From Escherichia phage phiP4: a DNA stretch of 64,000 nt. Position 1 is the first letter of the stretch. Each line of letters starts with the position of its first letter. The stretch lies in sequence record PP993145.1. One strand, written 5' to 3'. Under the pieces are notes generated by a model that did no database searches, had not been told where the DNA came from, and worked only from the letters and a program-made list of their open reading frames with translations. Shown one piece after another: positions 11,872 to 33,916 of the stretch. A program made the position numbers and the translations under genes.

Positions 11872-12285
11872 TTAAACTAGTTCGACATGACCGCCATCAT
11901 AGGTACCACGTTTTATTTCATCGTGGTAATCTCCCGAAGCATTCCAATCAGCACCAAAACGAAGTTTAATGCCTAGTTCTTTACCAGCTTGTTCAAAAGC
12001 CTTTTTAACTGCCCAAAATGCTTCTAAATCATTCCAATCAATTTTGCCATTAATGTATGGAGCAAAATCAAGGGCATCCCCAGTAATATGCTTGCTTTTA
12101 CTAGGATCTTTTAAAAATGAAGTACCATTAGCAATATTCTGGGCACTTTGTGCTACTGTACGAATACCCTGTACGATTGTGAAATCATATGGAGATAATT
12201 CTAAAGCTCTACGAGCTACTTTTTGTAGCTCTGGCTTAACGGTAGCTAATTGTTTTTCGCTATTTTTACCAAATTTAAAACTCAT
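11872..12285 (-). CDS. endolysin, L-alanyl-D-glutamate peptidase (M15-type zinc peptidase, 137 aa)
   Basis: His/Asp zinc-ligand motifs (HITGDALDF ... DGGHVE); size and position next to a holin-like gene. Confidence 0.65.
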   Translation of the reverse strand: MSFKFGKNSEKQLATVKPELQKVARRALELSPYDFTIVQGIRTVAQSAQNIANGTSFLKDPSKSKHITGDALDFAPYINGKIDWNDLEAFWAVKKAFEQAGKELGIKLRFGADWNASGDYHDEIKRGTYDGGHVELV

Positions 12286-12938
12286 ATTGATCTACCTAAA
12301 GATCTCTGTTGTGGGGAACAGAGCTTTGTTAAATACTCGTTAAATTTCTCAGAATCGGCTGCATCTACAGGATTATCTTTCCAAGCAATACCAATATATC
12401 CAGCATAGATATTGTTTAGATTGAAATACGGACAAGTGTATATGTAATTAAAAGTAACGTTCTTAAACGCAGGTATATTTAACCCCATATATTTATTTAC
12501 TTTTACACTTAAATCCGATGCGTAGTTAAAGCCTTCCAAGTGACGTCTATATAGCTCAGACGTTTTATTTACCGCTTTATCGGCCAAGTCAGCCCTATCT
12601 AATTGCGCATTGCTTTCCCATGCAATAATGTTAGAATAATCATTAATGGCATCGGGTTTATACTTGACGACAAAAACAGCATCCGCACCCGTTTGAGAAA
12701 AGAGTACCATGCTCTTTTCTCTAGCTACATTAGGAAAGTTATCTATCCTTTGAGTTTGAACATCCTGTAGAACCGCAGACGTGGAGAAAGTCTTTAAGAA
12801 TGACATCACCTCGCTAGTATTACTAACAAATAAGAAAATAATGACAGCAACTAAGATAGTTAGCAGACGTTTAAGAAGCGATGCTGGATCTTTCGCTTCT
12901 TGGAGCAGTACCGTTAATAATTGTAAGAACTTTTCCAA
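12282..12938 (-). CDS. holin-like membrane protein (218 aa)
   Basis: N-terminal TM segment; immediately upstream of endolysin, 4-nt overlap. Confidence 0.45.
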   Translation of the reverse strand: MEKFLQLLTVLLQEAKDPASLLKRLLTILVAVIIFLFVSNTSEVMSFLKTFSTSAVLQDVQTQRIDNFPNVAREKSMVLFSQTGADAVFVVKYKPDAINDYSNIIAWESNAQLDRADLADKAVNKTSELYRRHLEGFNYASDLSVKVNKYMGLNIPAFKNVTFNYIYTCPYFNLNNIYAGYIGIAWKDNPVDAADSEKFNEYLTKLCSPQQRSLGRSI

Positions 12939-13094: not shown

Positions 13095-13694
13095 TTACTC
13101 TTCTTTATGCTCCTCTGATTGAGGTAACTGGGCTTTATTATATTGCTCAGATCGATATTTTGCCAAGATTTCAATACGCTTATGGATTTCTTTGCTATCT
13201 AGATAGATATTTTTGTTGTCTTTTACCATCTCGTCGATTTCGTCTATTGAGAAGAACGGATAGTAGACATCTAGCATCATATCTTCTACGAACTTGTTGT
13301 AAGATTCATAGGCTTTCTTGATTTCTTGACCCTTCTCACAGAATCCGCCAGAGAACGTGTGTCCCATTAGCGTAGCATGTGGATGTACTACCCACCCATG
13401 GCAGGATAAGAAAATTGTGCAGTAAGCAGAAGCACTAGGACCAACCAGATGTCCTATAACTGTTCCACGGCAATTAGCAATTAAGTTAGATAACTGTGCA
13501 GCAGTATCAACATAACCACCCGGGCCATTAATCATCAGATTAATTTCGTCGTCCTCATGTGCCTGCATAAGTACCATTGATAAATCACGGTATTCATCAG
13601 GTGGACCTAATTCTTCATCAAAGAAAAAGGTATACTCATTAGATTGGCGAATGGAGTGAAACAGGTTAGTCTTTTCTTCTTTTTTATTAGTCAT
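13095..13694 (-). CDS. ClpP-like serine protease (199 aa)
   Basis: INGPGGYV and GPSASA motifs resemble ClpP INSPGG / catalytic Ser region. Confidence 0.55.
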   Translation of the reverse strand: MTNKKEEKTNLFHSIRQSNEYTFFFDEELGPPDEYRDLSMVLMQAHEDDEINLMINGPGGYVDTAAQLSNLIANCRGTVIGHLVGPSASAYCTIFLSCHGWVVHPHATLMGHTFSGGFCEKGQEIKKAYESYNKFVEDMMLDVYYPFFSIDEIDEMVKDNKNIYLDSKEIHKRIEILAKYRSEQYNKAQLPQSEEHKEE

Positions 13695-13706: not shown

Positions 13707-14459
13707 TTATCCAACTAGTGGTTCTAGCTCTAAGTCACAGAAGTTATAAACTTCTAGTTTAAGGTTATTGATACCATCGAATTTATTAACTAATTCGTGA
13801 GTAATATATTTTGCAGGAATACCACTTTCAGATGGATGATCTGATTTAATAGTGAACTTCTGCTCAGCGGGCACTACATTTACTATCAAAGAATCCATAT
13901 CTAAATGGTTTGTTTCTCTGAGTAACTCTCCTTCATTGGGGAATCTAACATCTGTTATTACGGCGACATCTGGGTCGTCTTTAGCGATGGATTGCTCCAG
14001 AATTATGAGCCAAATGCGTTCATGCACCAGCTGCCTTCCTAGCTCTGTCCCTACGAGCTGTAACATTTTTCTCGGAGAAATAAATAAACTATAAAGTCCG
14101 TCTTCTTTATTCTCTGAGATAAGTTGTTGAGGATTAAGGTATTTTTCCTCAAAAATAGGCCAAACGTACGAGAAGTCTTCAAACTTATCGATACCGTACT
14201 TAAACCATACATCTCTGGCTCGCTCCAATTGAGATTGTGTGACCGTAAACCATTGGTCAATCTCTTTTCCTCTGCGCTCTCCTAGAAACTCTGGAGTTAC
14301 ACCGAGGATTACGGATGCAAGTTCATAAACTGGCTTAGCAAAACTATAACGACGAGAAAAACACGTTGGATACGTGTCATTACACCAATCGATAATTAAT
14401 TTTGCAACGGTATCTTTTCCCGAACCAGCTTCACCATGTAAACCGACTAATACTGACAT
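13707..14459 (-). CDS. deoxynucleoside monophosphate kinase (P-loop, 250 aa)
   Basis: Walker A GEAGSGKDT at N-terminus; T5-like dNMP kinase size. Confidence 0.6.
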   Translation of the reverse strand: MSVLVGLHGEAGSGKDTVAKLIIDWCNDTYPTCFSRRYSFAKPVYELASVILGVTPEFLGERRGKEIDQWFTVTQSQLERARDVWFKYGIDKFEDFSYVWPIFEEKYLNPQQLISENKEDGLYSLFISPRKMLQLVGTELGRQLVHERIWLIILEQSIAKDDPDVAVITDVRFPNEGELLRETNHLDMDSLIVNVVPAEQKFTIKSDHPSESGIPAKYITHELVNKFDGINNLKLEVYNFCDLELEPLVG

Positions 14460-14812
14460 TAATCTTTCCTATTGTTAATTGGTGGATAATATACTAAACA
14501 ACGTTTTTCTTGCAAATCTTGACGATAGAAGCAAACCATACTTGTCAGTCGTGAAATATATGAATATTCTGCCTCACGGCATTTTGCCAACATATTCCAA
14601 TCTTTATATGGTACAACAACTACTACGCCATCTTCTCCATTTGTAGCTAATTTCTTTTCAAACTTAAAGTCAAAGCTACAAGGTTGAAGTCCTTTAGGCC
14701 AATCTACATGAGCTGTTGGTAACTCATGTGAGGGTTCTGACTCTATTTCTTGTGCACAGCCTGTGATTGTGATTGCGGCTGCGAGCAGTATTCCAAGTTT
14801 CCAGTTAAACAT
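14459..14812 (-). CDS. putative lipoprotein (117 aa)
   Basis: Signal peptide with lipobox-like ITGC. Confidence 0.5.
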   Translation of the reverse strand: MFNWKLGILLAAAITITGCAQEIESEPSHELPTAHVDWPKGLQPCSFDFKFEKKLATNGEDGVVVVVPYKDWNMLAKCREAEYSYISRLTSMVCFYRQDLQEKRCLVYYPPINNRKD

Positions 14813-15192
14813 GCTAATCTTTCCTCGAACTCTTTACTCTGCTTTTTAGCAATTAATGTTACCAATCCAGGCTTTGCAGCTATAATGTCTTGACGACTAA
14901 GTGCTTTATCAAGCTGACTAATTTTCTTATCTAAGTCTGCTTGAGAAATATTATTCATCGTGAAATACTGATTCATTCTAGTCTCACGAAGTTCACTTTC
15001 AGCTTTCACCTTATTAAGGGAAGTCTCTAGAGAAGAAATCTTTTTAGTAGCTACTGCAAGATCTCCCGCTAAAGTCTCCACTTTATCTACTAAGTGATAA
15101 GCACCGAATCCGATGCCTATCGCTAGACCTGCTCCCAGGATATACCACTTACCGTGCCATATTCCTGAAAGAAGTTTTTGTATCAAATCCAT
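14743..15192 (-). CDS. membrane-anchored coiled-coil protein (149 aa)
   Basis: ORF track; N-terminal TM segment. Confidence 0.4.
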   Translation of the reverse strand: MDLIQKLLSGIWHGKWYILGAGLAIGIGFGAYHLVDKVETLAGDLAVATKKISSLETSLNKVKAESELRETRMNQYFTMNNISQADLDKKISQLDKALSRQDIIAAKPGLVTLIAKKQSKEFEERLACLTGNLEYCSQPQSQSQAVHKK

Positions 15193-26905: not shown

Positions 26906-27112
26906 CTAAACTCCAGACTCTTCAGCCAAGTCTAGACTAATAAGAGATATAGCCATAATTGCTGCTCCATGTTCTTTTTCTCCAGTTTCTTTAGCTAGAG
27001 TTATAATATCAAGAAATTGCTTATGAAAATCTGCAACCTCTTGAGTTAAACCCGCCTCAGCAATCATACCTTTAAGCATGAAACGTTGTGCGGTAATTTC
27101 AGGATTAGCCAT
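26906..27112 (-). CDS. hypothetical protein (68 aa)
   Basis: ORF track. Confidence 0.45.
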   Translation of the reverse strand: MANPEITAQRFMLKGMIAEAGLTQEVADFHKQFLDIITLAKETGEKEHGAAIMAISLISLDLAEESGV

Positions 27113-27272
27113 GTTGTTTCTCCAGTTTCATCTTTAATAGTCTACAAATAAAATCAATGTCTTCATCCGTGCCTAGATCTCTATCTTCAAGAGTTGCCTT
27201 GAAGTTTTTAGTCAATTCCATGAGAATAACTTCTCTAGAACGACGTGTTGGCGGAGGTGGATGTCTATACAT
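27105..27272 (-). CDS. small hypothetical protein (about 55 aa, below track threshold)
   Basis: Hand-translated ORF with 8-nt overlap onto the start of 26906..27112. Confidence 0.35.
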   Translation of the reverse strand: MYRHPPPPTRRSREVILMELTKNFKATLEDRDLGTDEDIDFICRLLKMKLEKQHG

Positions 27273-27287
27273 CTTATTTCCTTAATT

Positions 27288-27364
27288 TGGTAGGGGTGGT
27301 GGGATTCGAACCCACAAAACCTGAATTTTAAGTCCAGTACCTATGCCAATTCGATTACACCCCC
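27288..27364 (-). tRNA. tRNA with Leu-type anticodon TAA but class I (short variable loop) architecture
   Basis: Hand fold: acceptor GGGGGTG/CACCCCT with G1-U72, discriminator A, CCA, anticodon loop CTTAAAA. Confidence 0.5.
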
Positions 27365-27465
27365 ATGTAATCAGTTTATTAGTTGATACATATTATAGCC
27401 TAGTGAAAATCCTACTACTAATCCCACAAACCAACCAATATAATAATCTTTTAGTTTCACAGGTA

Positions 27466-27651
27466 TTATCCTCGTTCAATATCTAGGGAAATACCGCAGT
27501 TAGGATTAATACCTGTACCATTGCAATTTGCGCAAACCCAGATATTGCAAAAAGTATCTCCTGCTTCTGCATCAGAACTTTCACCAATTCCCCTACACTC
27601 AGGGCAGGCACATTCCTCTAGCTCTTGCTTGAGTTCTTGAAACTTGGACAT
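27466..27651 (-). CDS. Cys-rich zinc-ribbon-like small protein (61 aa)
   Basis: Paired CxxC motifs (CPEC ... CANC). Confidence 0.45.
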   Translation of the reverse strand: MSKFQELKQELEECACPECRGIGESSDAEAGDTFCNIWVCANCNGTGINPNCGISLDIERG

Positions 27652-27659
27652 ATAGTCTC

Positions 27660-27848
27660 CTAGTTAATTACTTTTGAGGCTTCTAAAGCATTGACGTAGT
27701 AAACATCTTCTACATTATACATATAGTCTACTACTTTGTCCATAGCATGGAGTTCAGATGTAGCCTTTACTAGTCTGTACCCTTGCTTAAACTCGTCCGA
27801 ATGTTCTCTATCTTGTGCAAATTTAACAGAAACTATGAATAATTCCAT
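27660..27848 (-). CDS. hypothetical protein (62 aa)
   Basis: ORF track. Confidence 0.4.
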   Translation of the reverse strand: MELFIVSVKFAQDREHSDEFKQGYRLVKATSELHAMDKVVDYMYNVEDVYYVNALEASKVIN

Positions 27849-27867
27849 TAGTTGTCCTTATTTAATT

Positions 27868-27945
27868 TGGTGGCTCCCCGAGGATTCGAACCTACGTACC
27901 TTCCGGTTATGAGCCGGGTGCTCATACCATATGAGCTTGAGAACC
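27868..27945 (-). tRNA. tRNA with anticodon CAT (third CAT tRNA; Met or Ile2), imperfect T-stem
   Basis: Hand fold: acceptor GGTTCTC/GGGAGCC, D-arm GCTC/GAGC, anticodon loop CTCATAA, CCA. Confidence 0.5.
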
Positions 27946-27951
27946 AAAATC

Positions 27952-28040
27952 TGGCGGAAGAAGTGGGAATCGAACCCACAAGGCTATATTTCAAGCCGAC
28001 AGATTAGCAATCTGCTGCAATACCGTTATGCTATTCTTCC
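27952..28040 (-). tRNA. tRNA-Ser (anticodon GCT)
   Basis: Hand fold: class II, perfect acceptor GGAAGAA/TTCTTCC, anticodon loop TTGCTAA, CCA. Confidence 0.65.
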
Positions 28041-28061
28041 GAATTTATAAGATATATTATA

Positions 28062-28580
28062 TTAGAAATTTAGCTTCATAGCAAGAAAATTTTTCAAGTT
28101 TTCGGTAGACATCTCATCCACATCTACAGGAGAAACAAAGCCGTTTAATTTTCTAGCAAATTTTTCACCTGCAGGGTCATTATCCCCGACAGCTACCAAT
28201 TTAAAAGGTAATAATTTCAGTTGCTTTAATAACGCTTTTCCTGGAGAAGAACCCAACATTGCCAGGGCTGGATAACCAGCGTTATGTAACGCAACTGCCT
28301 TAAATACAGATTCAGCAATCAATACTACTTTTTCATCTCCATTGAGAGTTTCTAGTCCCCATACACACTGGATAGTAGAATAAGTAAAATATTTAGCTTC
28401 AAATGGGCACTTACCATGACCTTTTGGAGCAGAAGGATTATACGTCTGATAGCCTCTCAACATCCCAGAGAAGTCATACAACGGGACTGTTAGCCATCCT
28501 TCCGGACTTAACCAGCAATGATATTTATCTGTATCAAATCCTCTAGATAAGAGGTGCTGTGTTAGCTCATCAACATTCAT
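28062..28580 (-). CDS. hypothetical protein (track ORF 28062..28631; start moved to ATG at 28580)
   Basis: Promoter -10 at 28611..28616 lies inside the track ORF; ATG at 28580 has a GAGAGG RBS. Confidence 0.5.
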   Translation of the reverse strand: MNVDELTQHLLSRGFDTDKYHCWLSPEGWLTVPLYDFSGMLRGYQTYNPSAPKGHGKCPFEAKYFTYSTIQCVWGLETLNGDEKVVLIAESVFKAVALHNAGYPALAMLGSSPGKALLKQLKLLPFKLVAVGDNDPAGEKFARKLNGFVSPVDVDEMSTENLKNFLAMKLNF

Positions 28581-28610
28581 ATTTGGTTCCTCTCTCAAAT
28601 TTATAGATAT

Positions 28611-28639
28611 ATTATACAGAGAATTTAGCATTCAAGCAA
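28611..28639 (-). promoter_or_regulatory. sigma70-type early promoter (TTGCTT-N17-TATAAT)
   Basis: Hexamers and spacer read directly. Confidence 0.6.
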
Positions 28640-28755
28640 TCAAATTTTTTAACTTTTTAGAGGAAAATCATATGGCACTTAAGGGTAGCAGATAAGTGGT
28701 GAGGACCAAAATTTGTGACCCCACTAAAAATCCGGGGGTAATTTTTAAAGACCCC

Positions 28756-28784
28756 TTGACATTTTCTCGGGGGTAGTGTAAAGT
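28756..28784 (+). promoter_or_regulatory. promoter-like element (TTGACA-N17-TAAAGT) for the + strand island
   Basis: Perfect -35 TTGACA, 17-nt spacer, weaker -10. Confidence 0.4.
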
Positions 28785-28846
28785 ATACGTTATGGATGAG
28801 TGATCAAAGAGACACACATTTTCTATATACTAGGAGGTGTCAAAAA

Positions 28847-29833
28847 ATGACAGAAGAAGTAGCTAAGAGTCCTGAGACCGTCGCTAGCGTTGCAGCAGAA
28901 CTGCACCGTCACGAGGAATCGGATAAGAAAAAGTGGGAGAAGGTCAGAGCCTACGAAGAGAAACATCGCGAACACGACGATGAAGAAGATGACGATGATG
29001 AACATTGTCATAAATATGGAAAACATAAAATGCAAGAACCAGTAAACGTATTCACTAGTGGCTTCCCTGGCCTACTGGGTGGTTACCCAGCAAACGCAGG
29101 TGCTTTCGGTGGTGAAGGTATGGGACTATTCGGAGCTATCCTAATCGGTGCTCTATTAACAGGCGGATTCGGTGGTTTCGGTGGATTCGGTGGACGTGGT
29201 GTAGTTGGTGATGGTACCGCAGTTGATGCAGTACTTCAGAACCAAGATACCGCTAGTATTCTAGCAGCTATTAACACTACTCGTACAGAAGCTAACCAGG
29301 GTACTGGAGCTGTTTTAAGCGCAGTTAACAATGGTTTTAGCCAGACATCCCAAAACCAGAGCCGTGATACTCAGTCTGTACTAACTACGATCTATGGTAC
29401 AGGTGCTAATCTGTCTAATCAGATCTGCCAGGAAACTCGCAACGTTATTCAGGGTCAGTTCGATCTTTCTCGCCAGATTGATCAATCTTTCGCAGCTAAC
29501 CAGATAGCTCGTGCACAAGATAAGTTTGATTCTGCACAGATCGCTTTCCAGCAGACTTTACAAACTAATAACCAGTTTGCCGCTGTTCAGGCTCAGATGT
29601 GTGCTAACCAGAACTCTCTGGAACGTCAGATCGCTGAATGTTGCTGTGAACTTCAGACTGCGATCGCTGGTGTAACTACTGCGCGTATCCAGGATGAGTT
29701 AGACGCATGTCGCCTACGTGAAGCAATCGCTGCTGGTAGCGGTGCTAACGGTCAGGTAATTAATCAAATCGCTTTAAGTCTTGGTGCTATCACTCAGACT
29801 CTGGCTGGTCTGCAGGCTAAACTGCCGGCTTAA
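28847..29833 (+). CDS. low-complexity protein: acidic N-terminus, Gly-Phe repeat hydrophobic segment, Gln/Asn-rich body, Cys cluster (track ORF 28796..29833)
   Basis: AGGAGG RBS before ATG at 28847; GGFGGFGGFGG and ECCCE motifs read directly. Confidence 0.5.
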   Translation: MTEEVAKSPETVASVAAELHRHEESDKKKWEKVRAYEEKHREHDDEEDDDDEHCHKYGKHKMQEPVNVFTSGFPGLLGGYPANAGAFGGEGMGLFGAILIGALLTGGFGGFGGFGGRGVVGDGTAVDAVLQNQDTASILAAINTTRTEANQGTGAVLSAVNNGFSQTSQNQSRDTQSVLTTIYGTGANLSNQICQETRNVIQGQFDLSRQIDQSFAANQIARAQDKFDSAQIAFQQTLQTNNQFAAVQAQMCANQNSLERQIAECCCELQTAIAGVTTARIQDELDACRLREAIAAGSGANGQVINQIALSLGAITQTLAGLQAKLPA

Positions 29834-29854
29834 TATTAAGGGGAGGAGCCCATT

Positions 29855-30259
29855 ATGAGTAAATATGGTTTTGTAAATAACGGACTTAATCAAAGTATGG
29901 GCTCCCAGCAGCCCATGCCGGGTCTGGATAACCCCTACTTACAACAGTTGCAACAGCGTTTAGCAGAAGCGCAACAGATGCAGCAACAACTCCAGCAAAA
30001 CCCTGGAAGTGTGAGTCCTATGCAAATGATGCAGCAAATGAGCGGGCAGTCGCAAATGCCTCAACAAATGCAGCAACAGGTGCCGCAGCAGCAAACCCAA
30101 CAACCGCAGGTTTCTGCGGAAGGACAGGCAGTACTAGCCCTTTTCGAAGACTTCGCAAAGACAGAGGATGGGAAACAGCTTGTATCACTTATGGGTAAGT
30201 TTAATAGCTTCTGCCAAAGCCAAGTTGCAAAAGCTCAAAATGGTGGTAATAACTCCTAA
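29855..30259 (+). CDS. Gln/Met-rich low-complexity protein (134 aa)
   Basis: GGAGG RBS; polyQ-like composition. Confidence 0.5.
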   Translation: MSKYGFVNNGLNQSMGSQQPMPGLDNPYLQQLQQRLAEAQQMQQQLQQNPGSVSPMQMMQQMSGQSQMPQQMQQQVPQQQTQQPQVSAEGQAVLALFEDFAKTEDGKQLVSLMGKFNSFCQSQVAKAQNGGNNS

Positions 30260-30268
30260 GGAGGAATT

Positions 30269-30463
30269 ATGTGTTGCAGAAAATCTGTTTCGTGCTGCCC
30301 AATGCCTGTAACACGTTGTTGCTCTCCAGCAATGTTTACGCAAATACCGGCGTTCAATCCGTTTGCCTTTAAACCTATTCTTATCCTGCCCCCTAGAGTA
30401 GATTTTCAGTCAAGATTGGCCTCCCGTATGGGTGGTTGCTGTACACCGAGAGTGTGGTTCTAA
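30269..30463 (+). CDS. Cys-rich small protein (64 aa)
   Basis: AGGAGG RBS upstream; multiple CC pairs. Confidence 0.45.
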   Translation: MCCRKSVSCCPMPVTRCCSPAMFTQIPAFNPFAFKPILILPPRVDFQSRLASRMGGCCTPRVWF

Positions 30464-30477
30464 ACCAAAAAACAAAA

Positions 30478-30510
30478 GCCCCTGCCGAAAGGTAAGGGGC
30501 TTTTTCTTTT
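30478..30510 (+). terminator. rho-independent terminator (GCCCCT ... AGGGGC + T-run)
   Basis: GC stem followed by TTTTTCTTTT. Confidence 0.6.
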
Positions 30511-30518
30511 GCCTTAAA

Positions 30519-30554
30519 TACAGAAAAGCCCGCGCTCTCGGAGGAAACGCGGGC
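30519..30554 (-). terminator. rho-independent terminator for the minus-strand SPFH gene (GCCCGCG ... CGCGGGC + U-run)
   Basis: GC stem followed on minus strand by TTTTCTG. Confidence 0.6.
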
Positions 30555-30579
30555 TTGGTTCGAAGATTACGTGTAACTA

Positions 30580-31527
30580 TTACTTGTTACGCATATCCAT
30601 GATCATTTGACCATCGTAGCCAGTACCTACCACAGTCTGAGGCACACCACCTTGATACTTCTGAGCACGAATCATTTCAACTTCCAGTTGCTTCCAGCGA
30701 ATCATCTCAGGAGTAATGGTACGTTGCAATGCGGCGTTAGCTTCAGCTTCTTTTTTAGCTGCGTACAGTTTAGCATCTGCGTCACGTTCGTTAGCAATAG
30801 CCTGGTTATTACGGGCTTCACGGTCTGCTTCTGCCTGTTTAACTTTTTGCTGTGCTTCTTGTTCAACACGAGCCAACTCAGCTTTTGCAGCATTAACTTG
30901 CTCTTCACGAACTTTGGTATTCTGTACCTGTTCCATGATTACTGGTGGCAGAGTAATATCCTGAAGGAATACCTGCTTAACTGTGTAACCATATGGGCGT
31001 GCATACTCTTCAACTTCTTGTTGAATTGCAGTTTGCAATTGAGCCTGAATTTTAGCATCAAACAAATCTTGTGCTTTAGGTACAGACTTACCAAACTCAC
31101 GAATAGTAGACAGTAATTTTTCAGTTACATATTTGTCTAACGCTTGATCCTGAGTACCCGCATTAATACGGTTAATCGGTGCCTTAGAACCATCAAACTG
31201 CAACATAACAGTCAGGTCAACAGTGGATTTAAACTTATCCTGGCTAGGAACCTGAAGTTTATCTAATTTTACAGCAATATCTTTTGTACTAAAAGTATCG
31301 AAAGATGCAAATGGGTTTACAAGATGGAAACCCGGTAATACTGGGTTAGGATCTACTTTACCCAGAAATGTTTGGGTTTTAACCGTACCATCAGAAACAA
31401 TAGTATATGAATTAAAGGCTAGAATCAAGCCTGCTAAACCAACTACAGCACCAATACCCCAACGTTTAATAGTACGAATTACTTTCTGCTCAGAAGTCAG
31501 TTCTTTCATATTTTTAGTATTAAACAT
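30580..31527 (-). CDS. SPFH/band-7 (stomatin/prohibitin/HflK-C-like) membrane protein (315 aa)
   Basis: N-terminal TM segment, SPFH-like core, C-terminal Ala/Glu/Gln-rich coiled coil. Confidence 0.65.
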   Translation of the reverse strand: MFNTKNMKELTSEQKVIRTIKRWGIGAVVGLAGLILAFNSYTIVSDGTVKTQTFLGKVDPNPVLPGFHLVNPFASFDTFSTKDIAVKLDKLQVPSQDKFKSTVDLTVMLQFDGSKAPINRINAGTQDQALDKYVTEKLLSTIREFGKSVPKAQDLFDAKIQAQLQTAIQQEVEEYARPYGYTVKQVFLQDITLPPVIMEQVQNTKVREEQVNAAKAELARVEQEAQQKVKQAEADREARNNQAIANERDADAKLYAAKKEAEANAALQRTITPEMIRWKQLEVEMIRAQKYQGGVPQTVVGTGYDGQMIMDMRNK

Positions 31528-31561
31528 ATATTTCCTTTGTTTTAGTTACAGTTAATAAAAT

Positions 31562-31636
31562 TGGCCGAGGTGACAGGATTCGAACCTGCATAAAGGAATT
31601 TAGAAGACTCCTGCCTCTCCCTTAGACTACACCCCG
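31562..31636 (-). tRNA. tRNA-Arg (anticodon TCT)
   Basis: Hand fold: acceptor CGGGGTG/CACCTCG, anticodon loop CTTCTAA, CCA. Confidence 0.65.
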
Positions 31637-32138
31637 TTTAAGTATTTTTAAGAACTCTCGTAAAAACTCTTAAAAATACAGACGATACCGGGAGAGTCAT
31701 AAGTCTCACTCATTAAGTATTTCAAGACAAAATACAGTAACGTCTATTATTTTCCAGTTTAAGTCAAGGTGACTTAGTGGTTATGTCCTGCGGTATATTG
31801 AGGACTCGGTTAGGCTTGGGGTCATGACTTCCCGCCTTTTGCTGCTACTCAACAGGAGTTATCGCGAATTACCTGTGCTATTGTGCACCATTAGTGACAT
31901 CTCTCATGTCAGCATTTCCCACTTTGTGGATAGCTTGAAAAACTACTCCGATATGGAGAAAGAACTTCACTATCCTAGAATACCTTCTAAAGTTCTTCTT
32001 TAGCCTGGACATAGTTAAATCGTAATAAAACTATTCAGCAGACTGGTTGGTTAGTCTGGAACCAACTACCGCGTGGTTTAGGCAGTGCGCAACTAACCTC
32101 GGAAGCTTTTACGTTAAAAGCATCAGTTATCCAGTTCT

Positions 32139-32210
32139 TACCGACCGTAGGATTCGAACCTACATCTTCCACCAGTTACGGCTTGATAATACCAATTATA
32201 CTAGGACGGC
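32139..32210 (-). other. tRNA-like element with acceptor and perfect T-arm but no recognisable anticodon arm
   Basis: T-arm GTAGG-TTCGAAT-CCTAC; acceptor 6/7 paired; no CCA. Confidence 0.3.
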
Positions 32211-32470
32211 AGTGTTACTACATAAGTGATTTCCACACCCCACTATTTATAAATTAGAGAAGAGTTTAAGGGAGAGGTTTCAGACGCCTCATTTTACACG
32301 TTCTAGCCACTAACCGGGATTGCCGCCCCCTGTGTACTAGTTTTACAACTAACCCACCGACTCTATTCAATGCGCTCCGGTTGGGATTCTGCACTCAGCG
32401 TAATCGGCTCGCTGTTCCCTAATTTATGAATATATTATACATAATTTATAAGCATTTAGCAAATGAATTT

Positions 32471-32905
32471 TTAGAAAAATTCACTAGCAATCAAAGCAGT
32501 TGTTTTACCGTCATAACGTCCAGGAAATTCTGCCTTAATAGTTTTCATTAAAAGAGCTTTGGTAATTCCTGGATTTAATTTAACCAGTTCTGCAAAATAC
32601 TCACGAATTTCAGTTTCAGTCAGTTGACTTGGCTGATACTCTTGCAGCATGGAATAAAGCAGTTGCTCATAGTCTACATCAGTAGGAACTTTCATACCAA
32701 CTTTAATAGCGCGCTGTTTTGCATTTTCTAGAGCCTTAATCTGAGCTTTCAGATAGGCTACGAACTCGGTTCGAGTAACAATGTCTTTATCAATACGTTG
32801 CAGATCACCAATCATGGTCTGAAGATTAAGTGCCCGCTCTTTATCACCGTGAGTACGTGCTAGACTAAGCAGTCCACGAAGGGTCATTAGGATATTTTCA
32901 CCCAT
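32471..32905 (-). CDS. hypothetical protein (144 aa)
   Basis: ORF track. Confidence 0.5.
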   Translation of the reverse strand: MGENILMTLRGLLSLARTHGDKERALNLQTMIGDLQRIDKDIVTRTEFVAYLKAQIKALENAKQRAIKVGMKVPTDVDYEQLLYSMLQEYQPSQLTETEIREYFAELVKLNPGITKALLMKTIKAEFPGRYDGKTTALIASEFF

Positions 32906-33143: not shown

Positions 33144-33611
33144 TTAAGTTTTAGTGACAACAGGTTTATAGAATGTATGTCCCTTAATCTTAGTTGTTTT
33201 CTTAAATTTCTTTGTCCAGTAAGGTTTATCTTTACCACTATGGAAGTATAGTGCTCCATGTGTAGGATCTTGTGGTAAATCAACGTAGTATATCACTCTA
33301 GCTAAATTCTTAGCTGTTTGCCAAGCCTCATCAGTTTTATCAACTTTTGGTCTCTTAGATACCCAAGAGAACTGGTTAGACTGATATACTACTTTACAGT
33401 AGGAATCTGGGAATTTACCGGAGTTTACACGGTTTTTAGTAACATGTGCAATCGCCGTCATTCCCTTTATGCCCTCACCACGACTTTCGAAATAGATATT
33501 TTTAGCAATGCAATCTATTTCTTTTGCATCGTGCGATGCCTGACTACTAAAGCTGAAGGTAAGGGCAGCTACTAAAAGCAAAGCTGCCTTCATTCTTTTT
33601 ACTCCTGCCAA
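33144..33611 (-). CDS. secreted cell-wall hydrolase (SleB/CwlJ-like Hydrolase_2 domain) (155 aa)
   Basis: Signal peptide plus conserved block NIYFESRGEG ... AIAHVTKNR. Confidence 0.55.
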   Translation of the reverse strand: MAGVKRMKAALLLVAALTFSFSSQASHDAKEIDCIAKNIYFESRGEGIKGMTAIAHVTKNRVNSGKFPDSYCKVVYQSNQFSWVSKRPKVDKTDEAWQTAKNLARVIYYVDLPQDPTHGALYFHSGKDKPYWTKKFKKTTKIKGHTFYKPVVTKT

Positions 33612-33916
33612 TCATATTCAACACGATTGGGATTTTCTTTATACCCTAAGTCAAGCAAATCATTACGCATATTTTGCTTAGCTACTGGGTTCGAGGTTAC
33701 TAGTACCACTTTCTTTGGTCTCTGCCCAAATTCTAAGAGTAAACGAAGAATTTGATAACCTTCCATACCATCTACAGCCAAGTCATTATCCATATAAACG
33801 AAATGGCCTGTGGTATCAGTTTTATTCAGAAACTCTACAGCGGCTTCTGGGGTTCGAATGATAATGTCCATTCCGTGAAGATTACGCACATCATCAATCA
33901 AAATATGAAAAGTCAT
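33599..33916 (-). CDS. hypothetical protein (105 aa), possible receiver-like fold
   Basis: ORF track; weak resemblance only. Confidence 0.4.
   Translation of the reverse strand: MTFHILIDDVRNLHGMDIIIRTPEAAVEFLNKTDTTGHFVYMDNDLAVDGMEGYQILRLLLEFGQRPKKVVLVTSNPVAKQNMRNDLLDLGYKENPNRVEYDWQE

Follow-up and report, generated by a model that had tools for sequence, protein, structure and literature searches.

A strongly conserved gene of T5-like phages, dispensable in the laboratory, encodes an SPFH/band-7 membrane protein predicted to face the periplasm

Escherichia phage phiP4 (sequence record PP993145.1), a T5-like and strictly virulent phage (Tequintavirus), encodes an SPFH/band-7 membrane protein that is best explained, with a probability of about 0.55 for the explanation as a whole, as a type II inner-membrane cage that serves as an accessory factor and helps to control what happens at the envelope or inner membrane while the phage infects its host. 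The gene occupies positions 30580..31527 on the minus strand of the window, i.e., the whole stretch of 64,000 nucleotides that was analyzed. It specifies 315 amino acids from an ATG start, and a ribosome-binding site read from the sequence, AAGGA (31532..31540, minus strand), lies 6 nt 5' of the ATG. The 2.5 kb around the gene are 97 to 98% identical to many Tequintavirus genomes, and the product shares 99.4% protein identity with T5.080 of Escherichia phage T5 (YP_006908.1, NC_005859), which has the same position between tRNA-Arg and a bidirectional terminator. There is no difference of substance between the two, which are the same gene.

The earlier note on this DNA had proposed an SPFH/band-7 membrane protein in a lytic phage and had made the proposal depend on a profile match. 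The search returned Pfam PF01145 (Band_7/SPFH) over residues 52 to 225, with E=2e-17 and 64.2 bits versus a gathering cut-off of 23.6; together with the SPFH fold, the transmembrane segment, and the virulent T5-like genome, this match bears the proposal out. The protein is composed of a short basic N-terminus, one transmembrane helix (at about residues 23 to 40), the SPFH domain, a long coiled-coil helix, and a conserved C-terminal motif. Its single hydrophobic segment spans about residues 23 to 43 (19-mer 25 to 43, Kyte-Doolittle 1.79), and a hydrophobic segment at the N-terminus is present in nearly the whole family (232 of 238 members). The 22-residue tail before the transmembrane segment contains six lysine or arginine residues, against two in the stretch after it, and the same charge bias was found in 109 of the 117 close homologs having such a segment. 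Because of this bias, the protein is predicted to be inserted N-in/C-out (type II), with its SPFH domain in the periplasm. This is the outcome of the topology check proposed in the earlier note, and the orientation has the positive-inside rule as its sole basis.

An AlphaFold2 monomer model built on 32 homologs (mean pLDDT 76) contains a transmembrane helix (residues 12 to 38), an alpha/beta SPFH domain (41 to 192), a 76-residue helix (195 to 270), and a further helix (273 to 290). The C-terminal 25 residues are modeled with low confidence, and they bear the highly conserved GGVPxTVVG...MDxR, which along with VPSQDK is one of the strongly conserved motifs of the family. The comparison of the model with the PDB using Foldseek gave a probability of 1.0 to erlin1/2, prohibitin 1/2, HflK/C, stomatin, QmcA, flotillin, and major vault protein, with E values ranging from 4e-15 to about 1e-6; the alignments to the SPFH proteins cover 270 to 320 columns. 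The modeled fold thus matches every solved SPFH cage protein along its full length. The conserved C-terminal motif would be compatible with an oligomeric cage, and we infer cage-type self-assembly and periplasmic orientation with fair confidence.

The phage protein is not HflK, HflC, QmcA, or YqiK, and it has not been copied from a host gene. Searched against solved structures, the family profile detected QmcA (3e-7), prohibitin-2 (8e-5), prohibitin-1 (3e-4), and HflC (4e-3), and did not detect HflK. NCBIfam, which holds HflK and HflC models, gave no match at E<=1. When 1.84 billion representative proteins were searched with a profile, only 86 clusters were obtained at E<1e-30 (2042 at E<1e-3), and the protein therefore represents a small, distinct SPFH subfamily. 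E. coli QmcA (PDB 8Z5G), a stomatin-like protein with the NfeD partner YbbJ, is the best sequence match among solved structures. It is, however, cytoplasm-facing and encoded next to an NfeD gene, whereas a periplasmic orientation is predicted for the phage protein and no NfeD partner gene was found in the neighborhoods examined, phage and chromosomal. Prohibitins PHB1 and PHB2 are among the best matches in sequence (8e-5 to 3e-4) and in structure, although identity is only about 16 to 19%. In its single transmembrane helix, lack of an NfeD partner, and predicted outward orientation, the phage protein resembles the prokaryotic "p-prohibitins" (SPFH4; Hinderhofer et al. 2009). The SPFH ORFs of T4-like phages, RB43ORF139c, 44RRORF098c, and Aeh1ORF064c (Nolan et al. 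2006, PMC1524935), are of the same subfamily (61 to 80% identity), but they belong to another phage family and lie in another genomic context, the tk-rI region.

The elements that flank the gene bear on its expression. A tRNA-Arg(TCT) gene known from the T5 annotation (31562..31636, minus strand) ends 35 nt 5' of the SPFH start codon, and no promoter-like site was found between the two. The nearest promoter-like site upstream on the same strand is a sigma-70-like TTGCTA-17-TATAAT (32434..32462, minus strand). Its homolog in T5 is promoter P16-17, recorded there ahead of "rnaX," tRNA-Arg, and T5.080. On the other side, an intrinsic terminator hairpin with a 12-bp stem and a T run (30526..30556, minus strand) lies 24 nt 3' of the stop codon. 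Beyond it lies another GC-rich hairpin, with runs of A and T on its flanks (30472..30510), homologous to the T5 "efficient bidirectional terminator" and common to the SPFH gene and the convergent plus-strand genes. In an Rfam scan of this 3' region, the sole match was to an sRNA; it covered the terminators and scored below threshold. Given this layout of promoter, tRNA, and terminators, with no promoter in between, transcription of rnaX, tRNA-Arg, and the SPFH gene would start at the P16-17-like promoter, which points to co-transcription with the tRNA and to early expression.

Two further features of this region were observed. The minus-strand terminator hairpin at 30526-30556 holds the T5 nick consensus, GA|GCGC, and the corresponding position in the T5 record (39746/7) is annotated as a "major DNA single-chain interruption," so that one of the fixed T5 nicks may sit inside the stem of a transcription terminator. 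The region homologous to rnaX (31637-32430, minus strand), which in T5 is a stable RNA, includes a further element resembling a tRNA at 32139-32210, matched by the Rfam tRNA model with 35.5 bits but not called by ARAGORN.

T5.080 is non-essential for T5 in the laboratory. In the viable deletion mutant T5st0 (AY692264, 113,238 bp), T5p066 is joined to T5p079 at an annotated recombination site, with a loss of 8.5 kb. Neither positions 27000-32900 of the window nor the SPFH protein have a match in this genome, which means that T5st0 lacks T5.080 together with T5.076 to T5.079. Of the SPFH gene, the natural isolate NG_S8 has kept no more than the final 42 codons. Moreover, in a transcriptome-wide CRISPRi-ART screen of T5, T5.080 (7 guides) was scored "Not Fit," i.e., its knock-down did not lower fitness (PMC11879866, supplementary file 16). 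From its loss in T5st0 and NG_S8 and this score, T5.080 is an accessory gene that must be of value only under certain conditions.

The genes adjoining T5.080 on its 3' side deserve description. An island of three plus-strand genes, T5.077-079 (28796-30463), converges on the SPFH gene and was lost together with it in T5st0 and NG_S8. The first encodes 345 aa; its N-terminus is acidic and His-rich, and it also contains a CCC motif and a hydrophobic stretch rich in Gly. The second encodes a Q-rich, low-complexity protein of 134 aa, and the third a protein of 64 aa. No Pfam match was obtained for the island products, and their PHROGs are all of unknown function. The deletion in T5st0 also removed T5.076 (28062-28631, minus strand), a Toprim-domain protein annotated as "DNA primase" and listed in the CRISPRi-ART supplement as "anti-defense, Known, Semi-Fit."

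The distribution of the gene was explored using tblastn, which found the SPFH protein in 741 phage records. About 431 of these are T5/Epseptimavirus-type genomes with at least 90% identity. A T5-type DNA polymerase at the same level of identity is present in about 441 records, from which it follows that about 98% of the close relatives of T5 keep the gene. About 216 records at 60 to 80% identity include T4-like phages (RB43, Miller, Slopekvirus, Karamvirus, and Aeromonas phages), Proteus Grimontviridae, and others, and more distant SPFH copies occur in Vibrio Schitoviridae and other phages. Comparison of phiP4 with three T5-like orthologs gave dN/dS values of 0.008 to 0.018 at dS of 0.13 to 0.35, which indicates very strong purifying selection and a gene constrained in the way of expressed genes.

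Copies 75 to 78% identical are found in T4-like phages, in the Grimontviridae of Proteus, and in uncultured phages of 150 kb, and the SPFH gene is the sole gene shared at the nucleotide level. In the uncultured 153-kb viral contig L100, for example, the SPFH gene alone matches isolate phages at this level (75 to 76%), a pattern that marks the horizontal transfer of a single gene among virulent phages that are otherwise unrelated. The host genera of the carrier phages are all Gammaproteobacteria.

Chromosomal relatives were found in Morganella and Providencia (57 to 59% identity) and in methylotrophic and other Gammaproteobacteria (31 to 41%). In a crude neighbor-joining tree, the Morganellaceae copies adjoin the phage clade, and those of methylotrophs form a separate clade. 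The grouping of the Morganella/Providencia copies with the phage clade suggests exchange of the gene between phage and host, in one direction or the other. The two chromosomal contexts inspected (Morganella and Methylophagaceae) consist of ordinary genes, with no prophage genes and no NfeD. On the basis of these two contexts and the lack of a PADLOC match at E<=1, an origin of the bacterial homologs in a prophage or a defense island was rejected. The Morganella/Providencia homolog (L021 5968-6939; contigs L010-L022) is located between a TetR/alcohol-dehydrogenase pair and an HlyD/C39-ABC exporter.

Taken as a mechanism, the preferred explanation would run as follows. The SPFH protein would be expressed from an early T5 promoter along with tRNA-Arg and be anchored in the inner membrane by a single N-in/C-out pass. 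Through its coiled-coil helix of roughly 75 residues and the conserved C-terminal strand motif, it would most probably self-assemble into a ring or cage, as in every solved SPFH protein. From the periplasmic side, this cage would fence a patch of the inner membrane and the client proteins enclosed in it. The client could be host FtsH, as for HflK/C and the prohibitins, or phage lysis proteins on the periplasmic side, such as the T-type holin/RI or an auxiliary cell-wall hydrolase. In either case the gene would be conditionally useful and stand outside the core lytic program. The FtsH reading, which draws on topology and family precedent, and the lysis or envelope reading, which draws on gene neighborhoods, are about equally likely, and as specific answers both have a low probability.

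HflK/C, prohibitins, and stomatin-like proteins associate with FtsH-type proteases, and the Gammaproteobacterial hosts of the carrier phages encode FtsH. The phage protein may mimic HflK/C, its cage capturing or displacing the periplasmic domains of host FtsH and so altering membrane-protein degradation; small phage membrane proteins might be protected in this way, or the turnover of LpxC or SecY altered, outcomes that are as tentative as the mimicry itself. With E. coli HflK/HflC (PDB 7WI3, 7VHQ, and 9CZ2) the phage protein shares an N-terminal transmembrane anchor, a periplasmic SPFH domain (predicted for the phage protein), a long coiled-coil helix, and a C-terminal cap segment. Chains of HflK/C and of prohibitin rank near the top of the structural comparison (Foldseek E of 2e-12 to 1e-8 for HflK/HflC versus the phage model), and all carrier hosts being Gammaproteobacteria also favors mimicry. 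The predicted N-in/C-out orientation is that of HflK/C, which is periplasmic, and opposite to that of QmcA (summarized in Hinderhofer 2009, PMC2636767). However, HflK and HflC form an obligate heteromer encoded as a pair, whereas the phage protein is the product of a single gene, and no second SPFH copy, as in the hflK-hflC arrangement, was found near the gene in T5, T4-like, P59, and Vibrio phage loci. Since the profile similarity to HflC is marginal and that to HflK undetectable, and NCBIfam gave no match to either, an FtsH-binding surface cannot be inferred. The lack of a fitness effect on knock-down in E. coli also argues against mimicry, and a literature search found nothing linking T5 and FtsH.

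The second client proposed leads to the lysis genes. The earlier note had described these as nearby, which is accurate for a single lysis-like neighbor, T5.083, encoded 1.6 kb upstream of the SPFH gene (33144-33611, minus strand), whose SleB-like Hydrolase_2 product bears a signal peptide, but not for the canonical cassette. The T-type holin (T5.041, 12282-12938, minus strand; Phage_holin_T PF11031, E=8e-114), the endolysin (11872-12285), and the spanins (14459-15192) lie about 15 to 19 kb from it. As a periplasmic scaffold, the SPFH protein might confine or delay a holin, an antiholin, or a murein hydrolase and thereby set the timing or the site of lysis.

Synteny in other phages gives such a role some indirect support. 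In all nine enterobacterial T4-like loci the SPFH homolog directly follows rI, which encodes the periplasmic antiholin, and rI.-1, and in Aeromonas T4-like phages rI is 3 to 4 kb away. A Hydrolase_2 gene lies within 0.5 to 1.7 kb of the SPFH gene not only in T5-like phages but also in phages like Proteus phage P59 (in P59 itself, together with a cREC_REC gene, within 1.7 kb after the SPFH gene) and in viral contigs L100 and L101, where it is about 0.5 kb downstream. This proximity of SPFH homologs to rI or Hydrolase_2 across lineages is a weak but recurrent signal. T-type holins, which have a large periplasmic domain, are present in both main carrier groups, the T5-like and the T4-like phages.

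Against a lysis role stand the distance of the T5 cassette and the fact that T5st0 lyses and plaques without the SPFH gene. No rI homolog was found in the 64-kb window, though the holin is a T4-type T holin, and T4 itself has T and RI but is not known to carry an SPFH gene. The adjacency to rI in T4-like phages may stem from one insertion into the hyperplastic tk-rI region, and genes for Hydrolase_2 proteins are widespread among large phages (1288 records). No conserved partner gene for the SPFH gene was found, and neighborhoods differ between phage families. A strict coupling to T-type holins is rejected because P59 carries a 75%-identical SPFH copy and no T holin at E<=1; the function of the SPFH protein therefore cannot require a holin of the T type.

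Some further observations concern these neighbors. The cREC_REC gene (cyclic-phosphate processing receiver) precedes the Hydrolase_2 gene in phiP4, and the pair recurs in T5-like phages (33144-33916 of the window, minus strand) and in the unrelated P59 (L073 27332-28153), where it adjoins RtcB. Contigs L100 (11371-11823) and L101 (9327-9686) have Hydrolase_2 only, without cREC_REC. A signal peptide is evident in the T5 Hydrolase_2 protein only, those of other phages having no obvious one, which is a further caveat on the recurrent proximity of Hydrolase_2. Next to the holin, T5.042 (13095-13694, minus strand) encodes a ClpP-family protease-like protein with a sub-threshold match to NfeD1b_N (E=1.6e-3). 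It was considered as an NfeD-type partner and rejected, given that its homologs track Demerecviridae and the phages of Pseudomonas and Rheinheimera and not the SPFH carriers, e.g., the T4-like phages.

A role in superinfection exclusion or counter-defense is less probable still. An early periplasmic cage could block the entry of competitor DNA, or buffer the inner membrane against the pore-forming or depolarizing effectors of abortive infection. Early expression, as suggested by the promoter layout, fits with this, as do the frequent horizontal transfer among unrelated virulent phages and the contrast between dispensability in a defense-poor laboratory strain and strong conservation in nature, which is typical of conditional accessory genes. 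The case is, however, purely circumstantial: the PADLOC models gave no match, no neighborhood link to known anti-defense genes was seen, and a literature search found no report of an SPFH protein with an anti-phage role.

That the product is a lipoprotein, as it is named in the T5 RefSeq record and in PHROG 200 (matched with E=1.7e-86), has next to no probability, since the protein contains no cysteine, so that a lipobox with its invariant cysteine, and with it lipidation, is impossible; close homologs are Cys-free in 112 of 118 cases, and a lipobox-like string occurs in only 10 of the 238 family members. For genome annotation, the label, which has spread from PHROG 200 and RefSeq, is wrong.

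Some GenBank records already use "SPFH domain containing protein" or "band 7 domain-containing protein" for this gene, and "PHB domain" or "prohibitin family" for phage homologs. The SPFH superfamily is known, and the SPFH ORFs of T4-like phages were tabulated in 2006 (PMC1524935). With the gene catalogued and noted in 2005-2006, its identification is ordinary as a discovery. In the literature search, only annotation-level mentions of phage SPFH proteins were found and no functional study, and a 2026 paper states that why a phage carries an SPFH gene "remains unclear" (PMC13239085).

The interest of the proposed type II inner-membrane cage lies in what it may reveal about membrane organization. 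SPFH cages such as HflK/C, prohibitin, stomatin, flotillin, and erlin are a current topic of structural biology, and their effect on client proteins is still debated. Being a single gene that is dispensable in the laboratory, under strong purifying selection, and repeatedly transferred, the phage SPFH gene offers a tractable natural experiment. With the st0 deletion and CRISPRi-ART already available in T5, T5.080 is a reasonable experimental target, and it could reveal which inner-membrane process comes under the control of a minimal SPFH cage. We consider it possible, if doubtful, that a dedicated, periplasm-facing SPFH cage is exchanged among virulent phages belonging to four or more families, that it takes control of a process in the inner membrane of the host, with either FtsH sequestered or a holin, antiholin, or murein hydrolase corralled, and that it thereby sets envelope stability or the timing of lysis in nature. 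If this is true, T5.080 would become the first functionally defined viral SPFH protein.
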